A DNA stretch of 9,861 bases, taken from the IMG/VR virus record IMGVR_UViG_2529292920_000001, positions 1-9,861 of that record. The stretch is one strand, 5' to 3'. The stretch is from a virus. Its lineage: Duplodnaviria > Heunggongvirae > Uroviricota > Caudoviricetes. This document shows positions 1 through 9,861 of the stretch, in pieces. The notes beneath the pieces are model-generated. The model worked only from the letters and a program-made list of their open reading frames with translations. It was not told the origin of the DNA and searched no databases. Every line of letters begins with the position of its first letter. The stretch's first letter is position 1. A program made the translations under genes and the position numbers.

Positions 1-2
1 GG

Positions 3-1573
<1,571 letters not shown>

Positions 1574-1723
1574 CCATAAAGTTTCGACAACTAAAAAAAG
1601 AGAGTGCTGAACTTCATTAAAGAGTTGCATCCGGTACTGGCTAACATTATATTTATATACGACTAGTATATAGGGGGGCGCGCTGTTAATCTCATTTTAA
1701 TGAGACATATCAGTGCTTGAAGG

Positions 1724-1757
1724 GAGAGGGCGGAGTTCGGCTTTGCCCTCTCTTTTT
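1724..1757 (+). terminator. Candidate Rho-independent terminator for the ATPase/HNH operon
   Basis: Stem GAGAGGGC (1724-1731) pairs with GCCCTCTC (1745-1752) around a 13-nt loop, followed by TTTTT (1753-1757); about 150 nt downstream of the HNH gene stop. Confidence 0.5.
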
Positions 1758-1792
1758 CATGACTCCATTTAGCTTCAAATACTTGTTAAAAC

Positions 1793-2089
1793 TCATTGCA
1801 TTATTGCAACAGATTGATTAATAATTCCAATTAATGTGTTTATTTTTTCATTTATCTTAATGTGTTTTTTCTCTTGTTCAAGAGAAAGCTTCCTGAATTC
1901 ATTTTTCCTGCTCGGCACAGCAACTATCAATTCTTCATAAATCTCCTTTGCTCCTGATACTTTCGCCAACTCACTGCTGTGTTTTTCAATAAGAGAATTT
2001 ATTTGGATGTTTATATTCCTGTGTTCATGACTGGTAGCACTTGAAACAAGTTGACAGGAAGGCTTTGGGGTTGCCTCAATTAATTCCAC
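1793..2089 (-). CDS. Hypothetical protein, 98 aa, predicted helical
   Basis: ORF in the AT-rich stretch, 21 nt downstream of the 80 aa ORF on the same strand. Start is GTG (2087-2089) with no clear Shine-Dalgarno; no recognisable motif. Confidence 0.3.
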   Translation of the reverse strand: MELIEATPKPSCQLVSSATSHEHRNINIQINSLIEKHSSELAKVSGAKEIYEELIVAVPSRKNEFRKLSLEQEKKHIKINEKINTLIGIINQSVAIMQ

Positions 2090-2110
2090 GCATGTTATTG
2101 CGACATTGAA

Positions 2111-2353
2111 TTAAGATGTGGTTGAGTATAAATATTGATACACTCCTGTTTTTCTTACTTTGTTTAATAGTCCTTTTTTAACCAGGTATTGAATTTGATT
2201 ATAAGTAAAAGCTTTTGCCTTTAAATAAGTTTTCGGAAGTGAAAATCGCTCGATAAGAATTTTTGCTACATCGTTACTGGTGAAGTTATCTTTGCCAATG
2301 TAGATGATTGCAGAAAATATGTACGACTCAGAGTTGGTTACTCGACTATTCAT
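2111..2353 (-). CDS. Hypothetical small protein, 80 aa, possibly winged-helix DNA-binding
   Basis: ATG at 2351-2353 (minus strand), divergent from the HTH gene. A candidate -35 TTGTCT / -10 TATACT pair (18-nt spacer) lies on the minus strand upstream, overlapping the palindromic operators. Sequence pattern (VAKILIERFSLPKTYL...YLVKKGLL) loosely suggests a wHTH fold; not verified. Confidence 0.4.
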   Translation of the reverse strand: MNSRVTNSESYIFSAIIYIGKDNFTSNDVAKILIERFSLPKTYLKAKAFTYNQIQYLVKKGLLNKVRKTGVYQYLYSTTS

Positions 2354-2375
2354 ATGACTAGAACAAGGCTGTTGA

Positions 2376-2424
2376 CTTAGGATTGCTAAGTATACAACAA
2401 TGACAGATACTTAGACAATCTAAG
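2376..2424. promoter_or_regulatory. Two copies of a 15-bp palindromic operator-like site (CTTAG-N5-CTAAG) in a divergent promoter region
   Basis: CTTAGgattgCTAAG at 2376-2390 and CTTAGacaatCTAAG at 2410-2424, centres 34 bp apart. A larger inverted repeat CTAAGTAT (2386-2393) / ATACTTAG (2407-2414) links them. They sit between the divergent starts at 2353 (-) and 2451 (+). Confidence 0.5.
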
Positions 2425-2450
2425 CATCCGAGGCCAATGAAGATGAATCA

Positions 2451-2783
2451 GTGTCTGAAAAAAATCCGATACCAGAACGACTTAAGGAAGCGAGATGCAG
2501 GGCGGGTTTATCACAGCGCTCTCTGGGTCTCCTTGTTGGCTTTGATCCCGCATCGGCTAGCAGTCGTATGAATCATTATGAGAAAGGACGCCATGTCCCC
2601 GATATTGATACACTTCGAAGGATGGCGGCAGAGTTAAACGTGCCGTTGAACTACTTTTTTTGTGATGATCAGACAACAGCAGAACTTGCATTACTCATAT
2701 CCCGGATGACAGAGGAAGAGCGAAGTAGCCTTATCGAAGCACTCAAAACGTGTTCAGGTGTAAAACATGCTGACAAAAAATGA
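2451..2783 (+). CDS. XRE-family helix-turn-helix transcriptional regulator, 110 aa
   Basis: N-terminal Cro/C1-type HTH pattern (LKEARCRAGLSQRSLGLLVG ... MNHYEKGRHVPDIDTLRRMAAELNVPLNYFF). GTG start at 2451, so the exact start is uncertain. Stop TGA at 2781-2783 overlaps the next gene. Confidence 0.7.
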   Translation: MSEKNPIPERLKEARCRAGLSQRSLGLLVGFDPASASSRMNHYEKGRHVPDIDTLRRMAAELNVPLNYFFCDDQTTAELALLISRMTEEERSSLIEALKTCSGVKHADKK

Positions 2784-2961
2784 TGTTATACAAAAGGCTA
2801 TTGATCTTTTTGAAGGTAACGAAAGTGCAGCATTAAACTGGTGCAATGAACCAAACAGAGCATTACAGTGGAAAACGCCCTCTGAGATAATGGACTCAGA
2901 AGAGGGGGCGTTGAAAGTTGCCATGCTCATTTTTCGAATAGAGCAAGGCGTTTATTCATGA
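2767..2961 (+). CDS. Small DUF2384-like protein (Xre/MbcA/ParS antitoxin toxin-binding domain-like), 64 aa
   Basis: Own ribosome-binding site AGGTG (2756-2760) 6 nt before ATG at 2767. Pattern ALNWCNEPNRALQWKTPSEIMDSEEGALKVAMLIFRIEQG resembles the DUF2384 toxin-binding domain (recalled, not searched). It overlaps the HTH gene by 17 nt in the +1 frame. Confidence 0.5.
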   Translation: MLTKNDVIQKAIDLFEGNESAALNWCNEPNRALQWKTPSEIMDSEEGALKVAMLIFRIEQGVYS

Positions 2962-2975
2962 TTTACGACCCATCT

Positions 2976-3004
2976 AATTTCTCCAACTAACGGTTGGAGA
3001 AATT
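2976..3004. terminator. Strong hairpin between convergent genes, candidate bidirectional terminator
   Basis: Perfect 12-bp stem AATTTCTCCAAC (2976-2987) / GTTGGAGAAATT (2993-3004) with 5-nt loop TAACG, between the + gene ending at 2961 and the - gene ending at 3078. A/T-rich stem flanks but no long T-tract. Confidence 0.4.
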
Positions 3005-3077
3005 TGGGAAGGTAAGCAATATACAGAATGACGGAAAGAAATCGTCCATGCCCTTTGTCGAAAAATTACAACCAGCA

Positions 3078-3512
3078 TTATGACGACTTGTGTAACTCCC
3101 GAATTACATGTTTGGCCAACAGACTTTCCACCGGAATAACCGTATTGATTTTTACCGCTTTGACAATTTCTATCAACGACAGGGTATTCTGCGCCAGTTG
3201 GTCTCGCAGCTCACTGACTTCCGCCTGCAACTGCTGGTTTCTGGCCAGCAAGGCCTGACGGGTTTTGCGGTTGACGTATTGCTGTTTTTCTTTTGGGCGT
3301 AGATTCAATGGGCCAAGTTGCTGATCAACATAGGCAGCAATTAGGCGTTTTCGCTCAAGGCTGCTCAGCGTACTTAAACCACCGTTAACGATACCTTTTG
3401 CCTTGAGCCGAATATGCAGGGCCTTGGCGGAAATAGGGGACTTGTCAAAGCCTTCAACCAGCATCAGTTGTAATTCGTGCTCGATCAGTGTGTCCAGTTC
3501 CTTGCCGCGCAT
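3078..3512 (-). CDS. Small coiled-coil accessory protein of the recombinase operon (TnpC-like by position), 144 aa
   Basis: ATG (3510-3512) overlaps the stop of the upstream 424 aa gene in an ATGA arrangement. C-terminal half predicted coiled coil (ARNQQLQAEVSELRDQLAQ). No catalytic motif recognised. Confidence 0.5.
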   Translation of the reverse strand: MRGKELDTLIEHELQLMLVEGFDKSPISAKALHIRLKAKGIVNGGLSTLSSLERKRLIAAYVDQQLGPLNLRPKEKQQYVNRKTRQALLARNQQLQAEVSELRDQLAQNTLSLIEIVKAVKINTVIPVESLLAKHVIRELHKSS

Positions 3513-4786
3513 CAGTCGTTCTCCTGCATCAATTGTTGGTATTCAAGTGCAAAAAGCTGGGCCAGTGTACGGACTTTGCCCTCGGTGATTACTCCACCAG
3601 ACAACACACTCTCCGCAGCAACCAGTTGTTGAGTCTTGGCACGACGCTGCCATTGTGCTTGTATTGCCTCGAGTTGCTGTAACCGTCGTTCGATGTCGGC
3701 CAGTCTGGTCTGGTAGTCAGGCTGATGTTGTGTAAGTTGGGTCAACTTCGAATGTGCTTGCTGTAACGCCTGTTTTTTGGCAATCAGATTGGGTAGCTCA
3801 TCTATCCGGCCTGTCAGCGTGAAATGTTCACAAAAGGCAGCACTCTGGCATTTCAGTCGATAAGGACATCCCCAGAGGTTAACTTCCCGCATACAGGAGC
3901 CAAATTTCAGCGGATACATCACGGCATGTCTTGCCACCATGGCAGAGGCTTGCTCTGGTCCTTCTGCGTCGCGGATTTCTTCAAAGGCGGCAGCAACATC
4001 TTCAAAGAGGCCGTCAGCAAATGACGCCTCGACAAACCTAGCTACATCATCCCGATCGTCAAAAGTATGCAGGTTGGCTTTGATGGTATTGTCCAAAGTC
4101 ATGTGTTCCGTGACCGCCAGTTGGCCGGTCCGTTTGACGATTTCCAGTGGCGTAGCAACGGAGGACGAAGAGGGCGCGGCAGTTAGTGCTGTCGATATCG
4201 GCTGCAAGGGCACCAACGAGGCTGCTTTTCGCCGTTCTGCAAGCGCCAGATGCTGATAGTGCTGATTCTGCGTGATGTCCACTCTCCCCATCAGCATTGC
4301 CTGTAAGTGGTCAGCGATATCCGCAATGGCAAGAAAGGTATTGATGTTGTGCCGGGGAATGTGGGTACGCATCCGGGTGGGGGTACCATTCTCTTCCAGT
4401 AATTGATATTTGCTGAATACTGATCCATCAGGCTCAACATTGCCTAAAAATTTATTCATAAGTGTGTTAGTGAAGGGTATCGGTATAGCCAGCAAAGCCA
4501 GTGTGCGCTTTAATGCCAGCGAACCCTTCTCATGTAGAAATAACAGGTCTTCGTAGTTAACTTCGTAGCGTTTGCCATTTTCCATCCAGGCGTGCGTACA
4601 GGGTTCGTTGGCATTCGTCAGGCCAAATTCGGTCTTGATGTAATGATTAAGGTCAGTCTTGGAATAGAGGATTTTTAGGCCGAAAATGATGTAGTAGAAA
4701 TATCGAGGATCAATTTCCTGAGTTTCAAGGTAATTTTGAAATACTTTCAACAAATGCAGGTGTATAAATGGTACTATTCGACTCAT
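3512..4786 (-). CDS. Atypical tyrosine recombinase-like protein with C-terminal Cys-cluster/coiled-coil extension, 424 aa
   Basis: Residues ~142-180 read HIPRHNINTFLAIADIADHLQAMLMGRVDITQNQHYQHL, which aligns with tyrosine-recombinase box II (HxxRH ... LLGH ... Y), with Arg in place of the usual His and a candidate catalytic Tyr at ~177. A ~245 aa C-terminal extension follows, with C-x7-C-x5-C-x5-C-x-H and a Gln/Leu-rich coiled coil. Start is 9 nt after the upstream recombinase stop, without a Shine-Dalgarno. Confidence 0.6.
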   Translation of the reverse strand: MSRIVPFIHLHLLKVFQNYLETQEIDPRYFYYIIFGLKILYSKTDLNHYIKTEFGLTNANEPCTHAWMENGKRYEVNYEDLLFLHEKGSLALKRTLALLAIPIPFTNTLMNKFLGNVEPDGSVFSKYQLLEENGTPTRMRTHIPRHNINTFLAIADIADHLQAMLMGRVDITQNQHYQHLALAERRKAASLVPLQPISTALTAAPSSSSVATPLEIVKRTGQLAVTEHMTLDNTIKANLHTFDDRDDVARFVEASFADGLFEDVAAAFEEIRDAEGPEQASAMVARHAVMYPLKFGSCMREVNLWGCPYRLKCQSAAFCEHFTLTGRIDELPNLIAKKQALQQAHSKLTQLTQHQPDYQTRLADIERRLQQLEAIQAQWQRRAKTQQLVAAESVLSGGVITEGKVRTLAQLFALEYQQLMQEND

Positions 4787-4794
4787 TTAACTGT

Positions 4795-6252
4795 TTATTG
4801 ATTCGACTCATATGCACTCCATTCGTCACATACATGAGAAAAGGTTGCTCTCAGGGCCTCGTTATCCATAGCGATTCGGTGAAGATTGGCCGTATTAGCC
4901 TGCTGTGATAGAAATCTTTTGGCATAAACATCAGGCATATGGCTATTGTGACTCCAGCCGCCAAGCAGTCGTAATTCATCCTTGGCTTCATCCATTAATC
5001 CAACGATAGAAAAATCCATGACAGCCTGGAGTGAGTCGGCCTTAGTTTTTTGAAGTTTTTCACGATAAATGCGTTGAAGTGTCAAATAAGCCCAGGTATG
5101 CCGGGTTATATGAGGCGAGATGCTTTCAATGGCATCATAATATTCATCTGTTTTATATTCAGGATACCGCACACTCATAATGTCATCAATCCGGGTAAAG
5201 ATATCATAAACTGCATGGTATGACAGTGGCGGGTGTGGTTTTTGGGTGGAAGTGAACAGAAAACTATGGGAGGCTTGAGGGCGAATTTTATTGATATATA
5301 TATTTAGAAAATGAAAGTCCAGTTTATCTAATGCCAGCACCCGGTTTGCATAGACATTTTTTAATGAAGGCAATCTTTTTCGCTGATCCGAAACGTCGTC
5401 ATCTACTGTGGTCACAATCAGGCTGAACTGATCCCCTCGGAGATTTGGTTTGATCGAATGACACTCCAAAAGCAGTAATTCACTGACACGCAATCCGTAA
5501 TTTAAAAGCAATCTGCAAATCAGAAAATTACGTAGCTGGATTTCACCAGCGGGGAAGGGATTAAGTGGGTTTTTCTTTGAAATTGAACCGGGTGTAATGA
5601 TTTGGTAAAAAGCCATGACCATCTCAGCAGTCAGACTTCGAAAGCGCTTATGGGTCGTGCCATTGTTCATCTGACGAGAATGGGTAAGAGTACGGAATTC
5701 TGCTTTATGTATCGATAACCGTCCCGTTAACTGCGTGGCAAGTCGTGTGAGCTCTTTAGGTGAGCCATCTATATATCTCGGCGAGATATACGTGTTAATC
5801 AAATATCTGATAAAACGAATAACCGAATGTACATGCCTGATATTTGTACGACGTTGAGGCGTGGTCTGCGTCGTAGACCTTATGGTTAACGCTGGTACAT
5901 ATAAATGCGTATTTTCCAGATAATGAAAAAAGGCTGTAAGTTCATCAATGGCAATCAATGGATTGTGGTTCGAGGAATAGAAACTGAAGCAAAAAGTCAC
6001 GCCATGGTGCCAGAATTCATAGAAAAACTTGAGCGCTTGAAGTGAAGAGGATTGCGTGGCTGATGAACGCAAAGCAAGATGGTCTATAAGATATATTAAC
6101 GGATATAAAAGCGGCTGGCGCGTGTGAGTATCCATCAGTGCCCATAAACGCTGCCGTTGGTTGATATTGAGTTGTGTGAGTATGAACACGCGGCATTTAA
6201 CCATCGTAAATGGTGTGGGTATGAACAAAGTAACCGACAAACATAACGTCAT
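4795..6252 (-). CDS. Tyrosine recombinase / integrase, 485 aa
   Basis: Box I-like GLRVSELLLLECHSI, box II HITRHTWAYLTL, and LLGGWSHNSHMPDVYAKRF giving the LGH-like motif and a catalytic Tyr near the C-terminus. No Shine-Dalgarno before the annotated ATG, so the true start may be internal. Confidence 0.8.
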   Translation of the reverse strand: MTLCLSVTLFIPTPFTMVKCRVFILTQLNINQRQRLWALMDTHTRQPLLYPLIYLIDHLALRSSATQSSSLQALKFFYEFWHHGVTFCFSFYSSNHNPLIAIDELTAFFHYLENTHLYVPALTIRSTTQTTPQRRTNIRHVHSVIRFIRYLINTYISPRYIDGSPKELTRLATQLTGRLSIHKAEFRTLTHSRQMNNGTTHKRFRSLTAEMVMAFYQIITPGSISKKNPLNPFPAGEIQLRNFLICRLLLNYGLRVSELLLLECHSIKPNLRGDQFSLIVTTVDDDVSDQRKRLPSLKNVYANRVLALDKLDFHFLNIYINKIRPQASHSFLFTSTQKPHPPLSYHAVYDIFTRIDDIMSVRYPEYKTDEYYDAIESISPHITRHTWAYLTLQRIYREKLQKTKADSLQAVMDFSIVGLMDEAKDELRLLGGWSHNSHMPDVYAKRFLSQQANTANLHRIAMDNEALRATFSHVCDEWSAYESNQ

Positions 6253-6506
6253 GCAAGAAGAAGATAGAGGGATAGGTAAGTGTATGATTGATCGTAGTCT
6301 GTGGCTGGTTATGAACTAAATGAACGGCGGACTAAATTTAACATAATATACATTATGCGCACTGTTATCAGGACTGATGAAAACCGAAGGCCAGTCATCA
6401 CCAGAATTGCTGTAACCCATCAATTTCATCAACTGGCCACATCAATGCATGGACGACTCACGCCTTGCGTCGTTCGTCTCGATAGCTGCCCTTTAAAAGC
6501 GGCCTG

Positions 6507-6534
6507 GCAGGAAGCGCGTTGCGCTGTCTCCTGC
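6507..6534. other. Imperfect GC-rich hairpin in the recombinase/phage junction
   Basis: GCAGGA-AGCGC-gtt-GCGCT-(gtc)-TCCTGC: outer 6-bp and inner 5-bp stems with a 3-nt bulge. Shares the core CGCGTTGCG with the palindrome at 6607-6623. Confidence 0.35.
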
Positions 6535-6606
6535 TGCTCTGTAATTTCTCCCTGGCTTCGGCGGTCAGGCAGCTGCATCACATGAAACATCATCATGCCG
6601 CCTTAC

Positions 6607-6622
6607 ATGCCGCGTTGCGGCA

Positions 6623-6623
<1 letters not shown>
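6607..6623. other. Palindrome ATGCCGC-gtt-GCGGCAT abutting the pIV gene stop
   Basis: 7-bp arms with a 3-nt spacer, ending at the first base of the pIV stop codon (6623-6625). No T-tract follows on the minus strand, so it is not a canonical intrinsic terminator. Confidence 0.3.
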
Positions 6624-8937
<2,314 letters not shown>

Positions 8938-8951
8938 AAATCACCCTCTTA

Positions 8952-9235
<284 letters not shown>

Positions 9236-9252
9236 AATTCACCACCTGATTA

Positions 9253-9861
<609 letters not shown>

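Follow-up and report, generated by a model that had tools for sequence, protein, structure and literature searches.

Filamentous phages of the CTX type (CTX-phi, RS1, CUS-1 phi and Ypf phi) carry no integrase, and two inverted dif-like sites in their (+) strand form a forked hairpin; the crossover lies at the border between the XerC arm and the spacer, integration leaves the prophage with an intact dif on one flank and a hybrid site that is non-functional on the other, and tandem arrays arise. Reviews place the CUS-1 phage of Escherichia coli and the Ypf phages of Yersinia in this class, with integration at dif, a dif reconstituted at one end, and tandem arrays (PMC4246890, PMC4266046). GInt islands (ginABCD; the Tn6571 family; Bardaji et al., 2017) have at one end a four-gene module for two tyrosine recombinases, a large protein without a detectable catalytic domain and a small protein, along with variable cargo, which in E. 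coli includes defence genes; they insert with high specificity and are bounded by short repeats consistent with 6-7-nt staggered cuts (PMC5385486, PMC10121019). Here, we describe a locus with the features of both systems, located in a 9,861-nt stretch of DNA (IMG/VR record IMGVR_UViG_2529292920_000001, positions 1 to 9,861; hereafter the window, whose coordinates are used throughout). The interval under study, 6253-6622, separates a recombinase-bearing left block from an inovirus right block. The arrangement is made up of elements of known kinds, namely a filamentous prophage that depends on Xer and an island of the GInt type; the target of the island, at the edge of dif, and a plasmid-like priming module in the phage may be new.

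The left block contains the effector genes of retron Ec78, ptuA (partial) and ptuB, a helix-turn-helix gene, and three minus-strand genes, the last of which encodes a tyrosine recombinase (4795-6252). The right block encodes the inovirus secretin pIV (6623-7882, minus strand) and a Zot/pI-like ATPase (7879-8937). The strongest feature of the interval between them, overlooked in a first-pass annotation made from the letters alone, is a 28-bp dif site at 6336-6363 on the minus strand, which agrees with the E. coli dif at 27 of 28 positions (matches in shuffled sequences: 0 of 200). The only mismatch is the outermost base of the XerC arm: the site reads AGTGCGCATAA-TGTATA-TTATGTTAAAT, and the host consensus GGTGCGCATAA-TGTATA-TTATGTTAAAT. 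It is predicted to be a working dif at which XerC and XerD bind and recombine. Its parts are as follows (related loci are referred to by L numbers):

6336-6346, minus strand: XerD-binding arm, TTATGTTAAAT, with the same sequence in the unoccupied dif of L001 and L019
6347-6352, minus strand: central region of dif, TGTATA
6353-6363, minus strand: XerC-binding arm, AGTGCGCATAA, presumably phage-derived, where the chromosomal dif has GGTGCGCATAA
6352/6353: XerC-side crossover point

Megablast comparisons with complete E. coli genomes place the two neighbors of this site to within a base. Homology of the left-hand DNA to islands in other genomes ends at 6362/6363, prophage homology begins at 6336, and the two overlap by 27-28 bp, which make up the dif site. 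An intact version of this island, in NZ_AP027759 (strain 2017-02-1CC), adjoins an unoccupied canonical dif, followed by ordinary chromosome. Furthermore, related genomes have the identical site between ydeT/yneL and hipA-hipB-lsr, flanking core genes that the window stops short of. The interval is very probably the chromosomal dif locus of an E. coli-type genome, lying between ydeT/yneL and hipA in the terminus region and with both of its sides occupied, by a GInt-type island and by a CTX-type phage with a structured intergenic block; this degree of confidence applies to that reading as a whole. Sequence identities, junctions and covariation support it directly.

Several statements of the first-pass annotation can be read against this map. 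It had placed here a boundary between two mobile modules, which the homology limits bear out. It had also treated the interval as one non-coding segment; the DNA is non-coding, but is composed of three pieces of separate origin, an island end, dif, and phage intergenic DNA. The doubt it expressed about a 94-amino-acid open reading frame (ORF; 6301-6585, plus strand) was justified: this ORF spans all three pieces, has no family match, and is not real, because its three parts occur separately in other genomes. The description as GC-rich fits only 6418-6622 (55.6%); the interval overall has a GC content of 48.9% (window, 44.1%), and its part at 6253-6363 is rich in AT. The interval does contain an attachment site, although this is dif and not the hairpins that had been flagged.

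The inovirus side is best seen in NZ_CP086625 (L002), in which a 99.6%-identical prophage is present in tandem. The full 7.7-kb unit there encodes Rep, pIII-like, pVI-like, Zot and secretin proteins, with no recombinase or integrase. The first copy has the same junction as the window, and both this junction and the one between copies carry ...ACATTATGCGCACTGTTATCAGG. The copy-to-copy junction exposes the free attachment region of the phage (attP), consisting of two inverted dif-like sites about 40 nt apart. In the packaged strand, this region (L002 16648-16741) folds as a forked hairpin of about 95 nt (-39.4 kcal/mol, z -8.8; its complement, -35.7 kcal/mol), and 8 of the 39 stem pairs have compensatory changes across three lineages, one of them inside the XerC-arm duplex. 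At the far end of the prophage array, in L023, the chromosomal XerC arm GGTGCGCATAA is joined to the phage spacer TGTGACACGCG. Both junctions are as expected, with the phage XerC arm on the host spacer and XerD arm at the near end (window and L002) and the reverse hybrid at the far end.

This prophage appears to be a CTX-type inovirus that integrates at dif via a folded single-stranded attP; it is CUS-1/Ypf-like, with the likeness to CUS-1 drawn from published features rather than from sequence comparison. The packaged (+) strand would fold its two inverted dif-like sites into the forked hairpin, and XerC would exchange one strand between hairpin and dif, with replication fixing the insertion, a course to which the anatomy of the junctions points. 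One product of this exchange would be the site in the window, in which the phage XerC arm adjoins the spacer and XerD arm of the chromosome; the other, at the far prophage end, would link the chromosomal XerC arm to a phage spacer that is non-functional. CTX-phi differs in that it encodes no secretin of its own, whereas the phage here does, and Ypf phi and CUS-1 differ in having two extra ORFs between the secretin gene and the att end (PMC4266046) that are not found in this phage. The nearest deposited phage secretin is 41% identical to the pIV studied here.

Several related loci depart from this layout. In L006 (NZ_AP045072, 1285-1460) and L012, an intact canonical dif is followed, about 55 bp on, by a complete, unrecombined attP hairpin; this is unexpected from a simple single integration, and the remnants of another Xer-dependent element may perhaps lie in between. 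In L005 and L011, the conserved block described below is kept, and the Xer attachment region is replaced by a long, near-perfect GC-rich hairpin (CCGCCGGAACGGCAGTTGC...GCAACTGCCGTTCCGGCGG); these prophages lie at another chromosomal place, near ybiB and a phospholipase D gene, and the hairpin and the location together suggest a different integration route. Beside a more distant relative in L016 (IMGVR_UViG_2529292909_000007, 4517-4544), the hybrid dif reads AGTGCGTATAA-GGTATA-TTATGTTAAAT, of which the first two spacer bases fit the phage spacer and not TGTATA, so that either the host dif or the crossover or repair point differs there. The unoccupied dif of L020, with the variant arm AGTGCGCATAA, may be the footprint of a lost prophage or a natural polymorphism.

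For the phage DNA between dif and the secretin gene, two described systems serve as comparison. In the Ff phages (f1, M13, and fd), a non-coding structured region directly follows gene IV on the packaged strand, as it does here, and RNA polymerase, not primase, is used at the minus origin. In plasmids R1 and R100, a primase-dependent G site reportedly primes leading-strand synthesis about 0.4 kb downstream of oriR. The features on the phage side of the locus are the following:

6364-6417, minus strand: lineage-specific phage linker (54 bp) from the attP stem to the conserved block, present in dif-integrating relatives and replaced in L005 and L011
6418-6625, minus strand: conserved non-coding block of about 205 bp, adjoining the 3' end of the secretin gene on the packaged strand; a candidate for a complementary-strand origin, a packaging element, or both
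6452-6478, minus strand: conserved hairpin GACGA...TCGTC with a ACGCAAGGCGT core, 100% paired in 10 relatives, with one-sided variation only
6507-6534, minus strand: 28-nt hairpin, invariant in its inner GCGC-AAC-GCGC stem-loop (6514-6524) and in the CCTGCC that comes next; candidate primer-start hairpin
6551-6623, plus strand: 73 bp with 78% identity to their homologue in R100/IncFII/IncI plasmids, which is located some 0.4 kb downstream of oriR
6560-6602, minus strand: Helix 2, GGCGG (6560-6564) with CCGCC (6598-6602), 100% paired; one pair has changed on both sides, from G:C to C:G, in 3 of 10 relatives
6607-6623, minus strand: Hairpin 1, the 17-nt palindrome at the pIV stop; pairing is 100% across 10 relatives, 4 of which have a compensatory change from C:G to T:A at one pair
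6623-7882, minus strand: inovirus secretin pIV, last gene of the morphogenesis operon (Pfam Secretin, 1.9e-25; PHROG 1012, 'protein IV of M13', 1.9e-116)

Relatives of the block were collected by a scan of viral contigs with the pIV protein, which gave the 10 loci used; a scan of genome contigs gave one uninformative locus. The block is 74-100% identical in relatives whose pIV is 73-100% identical, and 91% of cells are paired, compared with 27-41% in slid controls. It is kept in the variants with a different attachment module (L005 and L011, whose homology begins at 6418) and in L004, which has a traX-like gene in place of pIV. In the latter (NZ_CM137833, 1791-2552), this gene, for a traX-like pilin acetylase, lies directly upstream of the block. 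Helix 2 encloses a conserved GTTTCATRTGA.

The first-pass annotation had singled out an imperfect 28-nt hairpin and a palindrome at the end of pIV, and both are present and locally stable. The former folds as single-stranded DNA at -10.9 kcal/mol (z -3.3); the latter, ATGCCGC-GTT-GCGGCAT, overlaps the pIV stop codon (6623-6625) by one base and folds at -7.8 kcal/mol (z -3.2; for the two together, z about -3.2 to -3.6). Comparison with related phages, which it had proposed, finds the block, Hairpin 1 and Helix 2 conserved, but relatives do not preserve the outer stem of the 28-nt hairpin (77% paired, with no compensatory change). Perfect hairpins with a stem of at least 7 bp give 13 hits in the window, about 9 of them distinct, against a shuffle mean of 3.8, so the palindrome alone is not exceptional. 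The proposed folding of the whole region did not distinguish it from shuffled sequence, either for the phage part (6364-6640, z -1.5) or for the conserved block (z -1.6 on either strand), and the idea of a highly structured region was therefore rejected, only the individual helices being supported. Rfam returned sub-threshold chance hits only.

Two smaller motifs in the first-pass annotation were also rejected as meaningful. The core CGCGTTGCG, said to be shared by both hairpins, does occur, at 6515 and again at 6611 (6461 has a near-copy, CGCCTTGCG), and the palindrome GCAGCTGC does occur at 6569-6576, but neither is conserved in relatives: the loop of Hairpin 1 and the position of GCAGCTGC vary, and a repeated 9-mer is found in 18% of shuffles of the segment.

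The only homology of the block outside this phage family is to plasmids. The 73 bp nearest pIV (6551-6623) match at least about 2,850 IncF-type plasmid records. The plasmid element is 100% identical to R100 90429-90534, with which the 73 bp align; its position is 760-865 bp beyond repA, ahead of the CPBP/pemIK genes, and it is also present in an IncI plasmid. Hairpin 1 and Helix 2 are both preserved in the R100 and IncI plasmids. In R100 the shared block is immediately followed by a GC hairpin and TACTG, some 400 bp beyond the DnaA-box region of oriR, on the strand that aligns with the packaged (viral) strand of the phage. The record of phage G4 annotates a primase primer over a GC hairpin that ends in CTACTG, and in the viral strand here, the invariant GCGC-AAC-GCGC stem-loop is followed after 3 nt by CTG (6510-6508 on the minus strand). 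Taken together, these three cases place first, among the roles considered for block 6418-6625, that of a primase-type complementary-strand origin of the plasmid G-site kind, a possibility that comes close to being probable. As such, it would act on single-stranded viral DNA. A packaging role is ranked second and could possibly coexist with the origin. The hairpin-then-CTG pattern is short, so the match weighs little, and R100 differs in that its TACTG hairpin has no counterpart at that spacing in the phage, in which a variable spacer of about 35 nt precedes the candidate start hairpin.

In L025 (CP077667, an IncI-gamma/K1 plasmid) and L026, the Hairpin 1 loop, ATGCCGC-GCCA-GCGGCAT, is identical to that of the phage relatives L012-L014, which hints at exchange of the module between plasmid and phage. 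Scanning viral contigs with a pattern for the shared element recovered only members of the same enterobacterial phage family and R100-like plasmid fragments, apart from one chance hit.

The first-pass annotation had instead looked to the Ff phages, in which the flagged hairpins would correspond to the packaging signal, followed by minus and plus origins of the RNA-polymerase type as in f1/M13. Its general suggestion that a packaging signal or origin follows gene IV remains plausible, given the position of the block directly 3' of the secretin gene on the packaged strand, its conservation, its locally stable hairpins and some covariation, and a packaging role could be combined with the origin proposed above. 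The specific Ff equivalence is unlikely, however. The block contains only short hairpins of 17-28 nt and no long imperfect one like the Ff signal of about 78 nt, and the region as a whole folds at z -1.5 to -1.6. Within a collection of 50,697 phage records, no DNA similarity to the intergenic region of the prophage was found, and pIV is about 26% identical to that of fd/f1. Additionally, the outside homology described above is to plasmid replication-region DNA and not to phage packaging signals, and the Xer attachment hairpin of this phage has no equivalent in Ff.

A terminator, or a stabilizer of the 3' end of the morphogenesis operon transcript, would also account for a hairpin that sits at the pIV stop codon and whose structure is conserved with a compensatory change. 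This is improbable for Hairpin 1, which has no T-run after it on either strand, and a scan for intrinsic terminators found none in 6100-6750 on either strand. Moreover, this hairpin and its neighbor occur in plasmids within a non-coding replication region, without an upstream gene end.

On the other side of dif, the interval contains the end of the island, which comprises the following features:

4795-6252, minus strand: GinA-like tyrosine recombinase (Pfam Phage_integrase, 3.8e-5; weak Xer-like NCBIfam hits)
6172-6335, plus strand: recombinase-proximal island terminus, with three TATGAAC motifs at 6181, 6220 and 6310
6253-6335: non-coding piece of the island end, at the recombinase-proximal end of the GInt-type island
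6336-6342: island crossover core, ATTTAAC, the right copy of the bounding 7-bp direct repeat, equal to the outer 7 bp of the XerD arm

The ATTTAAC boundary was mapped by comparing occupied with empty sites. The empty site reads ...CAGACATG|ATTTAACATAA... in L003 (written further, ...CAGACATG|ATTTAACATAATATAC...), the far (left) island junction ...CAGACATG-ATTTAAC-TTATGTTG-N12-CAGTTCATAA..., and the near junction, in the window, ...GGTTATGAAC-N19-ATTTAAC-ATAA. The left junction is the same in three islands with different cargo. The repeat that the first-pass annotation had proposed to seek at the opposite end of the element is thus found, as the 7-bp ATTTAAC of the far junction; the terminus of a recombinase-borne element that it had suspected is likewise present, although with this core at the outer edge of the XerD arm rather than in the hairpins. 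The island's own recombinases would have inserted it into these outermost 7 bp, duplicating them; because ATTTAAC is the outer part of the XerD arm, insertion regenerates an intact dif. Excision would yield a circular junction, ...GGCGGACTAA-ATTTAAC-TTATGTTG..., and the empty site ...CAGACATG-ATTTAAC-ATAATATAC....

The TATGAAC repeats are likely recombinase-binding sites. The motif occurs three times in the entire window, in each case inside 136 bp at the island end, and the copy at 6310 sits in GGTTATGAAC, 19 nt ahead of the crossover core. The H1 island (15.4 kb) has four copies, one of them inverted (GTTCATA) and 20 nt inside the far end.

The assignment to the GInt type draws on the recombination module. 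In intact relatives, its order is an integrase of 466 amino acids, a second of 516 (Phage_integrase, 7.6e-10), a 788-amino-acid protein without a family, and a 144-amino-acid protein; this succession of two integrases, a large and a small protein matches the published GInt layout (PMC5385486, PMC10214605). In strand-biased circularizing elements (SEs), the order is integrase, large protein, integrase, small protein, which is not that of this island (PMC10214605). The recombinase at 4795-6252 is the first gene of the operon and the last before the island end; its counterpart in H1 is annotated as a site-specific integrase, and RefSeq homologues begin at the equivalent of window position 6189. 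The three islands share their ends and the 7-bp repeat; the cargo is retron Ec78 plus an ABC-three-component system in one, a MazG/thymidylate synthase set in another, and type I restriction-modification in the third. Retron Ec78 PtuAB is the defence cargo of the island in the window. The hipA-ydeT locus is listed as defence hotspot #20 (PMC10121019, supplement), and the presence of dif in this interval may explain its status as a hotspot in E. coli.

Compared with intact islands, the module in the window has lost about 2.6 kb (L001 10669-13003 and 13077-13349; the part of the window concerned is 3512-4786 and about 4666-4737), that is, ginB and half of ginC. The deletion takes the second integrase and the N-terminal half of the 788-amino-acid protein and leaves a fused 424-amino-acid ORF, so this copy has probably lost its mobility. 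It differs in this from described GInt islands, and the target differs as well, being the outer XerD arm of dif instead of the ends of ssb or ribonucleotide reductase genes reported in the literature covered. The same deletion is seen beside the same prophage in an IMG/VR contig, IMGVR_UViG_2600254997_000001 (L017).

A second, unrelated island of 8 kb, without an integrase, occupies exactly the same position in L002 (NZ_CP086625, 1220-9001) and has the same ATTTAAC repeat. It contains metabolic genes (aldo/keto reductases, a LysR regulator, and others) and CATGAAC 19 nt from its dif-side end, and could be related to the GInt-type island, as a decayed or a non-autonomous form.

An island that was itself Xer-dependent, as an integrative mobile element exploiting Xer (IMEX) such as TLC or the gonococcal island, with its own recombinases irrelevant to its position, would likewise adjoin dif exactly; its apparent boundary would coincide with the edge of the XerD arm, and an element bearing a perfect XerD arm would give the same picture. 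We consider this very improbable and rejected it because there is no second dif-like site: in L019 and L020, no other sequence lies within 7 mismatches of dif, and the far junction has only ATTTAAC in common with it. Xer exchanges, moreover, fall at the borders of the central region and not 4 bp inside the outer arm, and in intact relatives a complete four-gene recombination module lies beside that island end, with inverted subterminal motifs at both ends.

Least credible of all, and likewise rejected, is that the conserved phage block encodes a small protein (a 55-amino-acid ORF, 6429-6596, minus strand, of which PGAP annotates a 51-amino-acid homologue in some genomes): the ORF has the same orientation as the phage genes and an AAGG motif 4 nt ahead of its ATG, and the annotations of L003 and other genomes have a 'hypothetical protein' here, but a conserved ORF is excluded by in-frame stops at codon 8 (L004) and codon 16 (L012 and L013), loss of the start codon to GCG in L015 and L016, and 1-nt indels that shift the frame at three places among the 10 relatives, the window itself included, while compensatory changes fall in helices inside or adjoining it, Pfam and PHROG give no match, and annotators chose different strands in different genomes.

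Several points weigh against the interpretation of the locus as a dif site flanked by a GInt-type island and a CTX-type phage. The A-for-G variant of the XerC arm is also found at the unoccupied dif of L020 (27373-27400, NZ_CP075487), so that base alone is no proof of phage origin. Both the attP hairpin and the far prophage junction lie outside the window and were taken from the 99.6%-identical prophage elsewhere. The GInt assignment goes by gene order and layout and not by protein comparison with reference GinA-D. The three GInt-like islands have near-identical ends, which could reflect a single insertion with later swaps of cargo; the case for repeated site-specific targeting is thus carried mainly by the different second island in L002. 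For the phage block, the comparison covers only some 10 lineages, all closely related, in which each helix has a single compensatory pair, and the block as a whole is no more stably folded than its shuffles; R100 90429-90534 is a segment that we take to be the mapped G site. The enzymology and the origin function are what we infer from the DNA.

If these parts are combined, dif would be a landing pad with two sides, which one family of GInt-type islands enters through its own recombinases, specifically in the outer 7 bp of the XerD arm and with dif rebuilt in the process, and Xer-dependent filamentous phages on the XerC side; the complementary strand of this inovirus lineage would in addition be primed by a primase G-site module shared with IncF and IncI plasmids and not by an Ff-type RNA-polymerase origin. 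This joint proposal is tentative, and somewhat less likely than not. In the literature covered, we found no account of a GInt target at the edge of dif, nor of a plasmid-type G site in a natural inovirus, and a whole-word search of a GInt paper gave no mention of dif. The locus provides an exact map of which bases are chromosomal, which belong to the island and which to the phage. It would also be an example of two unrelated integration mechanisms stacked at one essential 28-bp site, the first depending on a folded single strand of phage DNA and the Xer enzymes of the host that act on it, the second on an element-encoded multi-recombinase module. Targeting of the dif edge, if true, would be a new target class for GInt elements, and a plasmid-like priming site, if true, would point to the exchange of replication modules between conjugative plasmids and filamentous phages.

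Three further observations concern the window. A promoter-like match, CTGATA-17-TATTAT (6343-6371, minus strand), has its -35 element in phage DNA and its -10 element within dif, and is directed into the island recombinase gene, so that phage integration would create it; it is the only match in a promoter scan of the region and is at chance level (1 found, 0.9 expected), and so is probably meaningless. Two adjoining ORFs at 1793-2353 (minus strand), in the most AT-rich part of the window (GC 0.32-0.35), correspond to one gene, which in H1 is a pseudogene with an internal stop. Lastly, a pIII-like gene at about 9450-9800 (minus strand), missing from the ORF list because it runs off the end of the window, contains a long (Gly-Thr/Gly-Ser)n repeat whose length varies among otherwise near-identical prophages.

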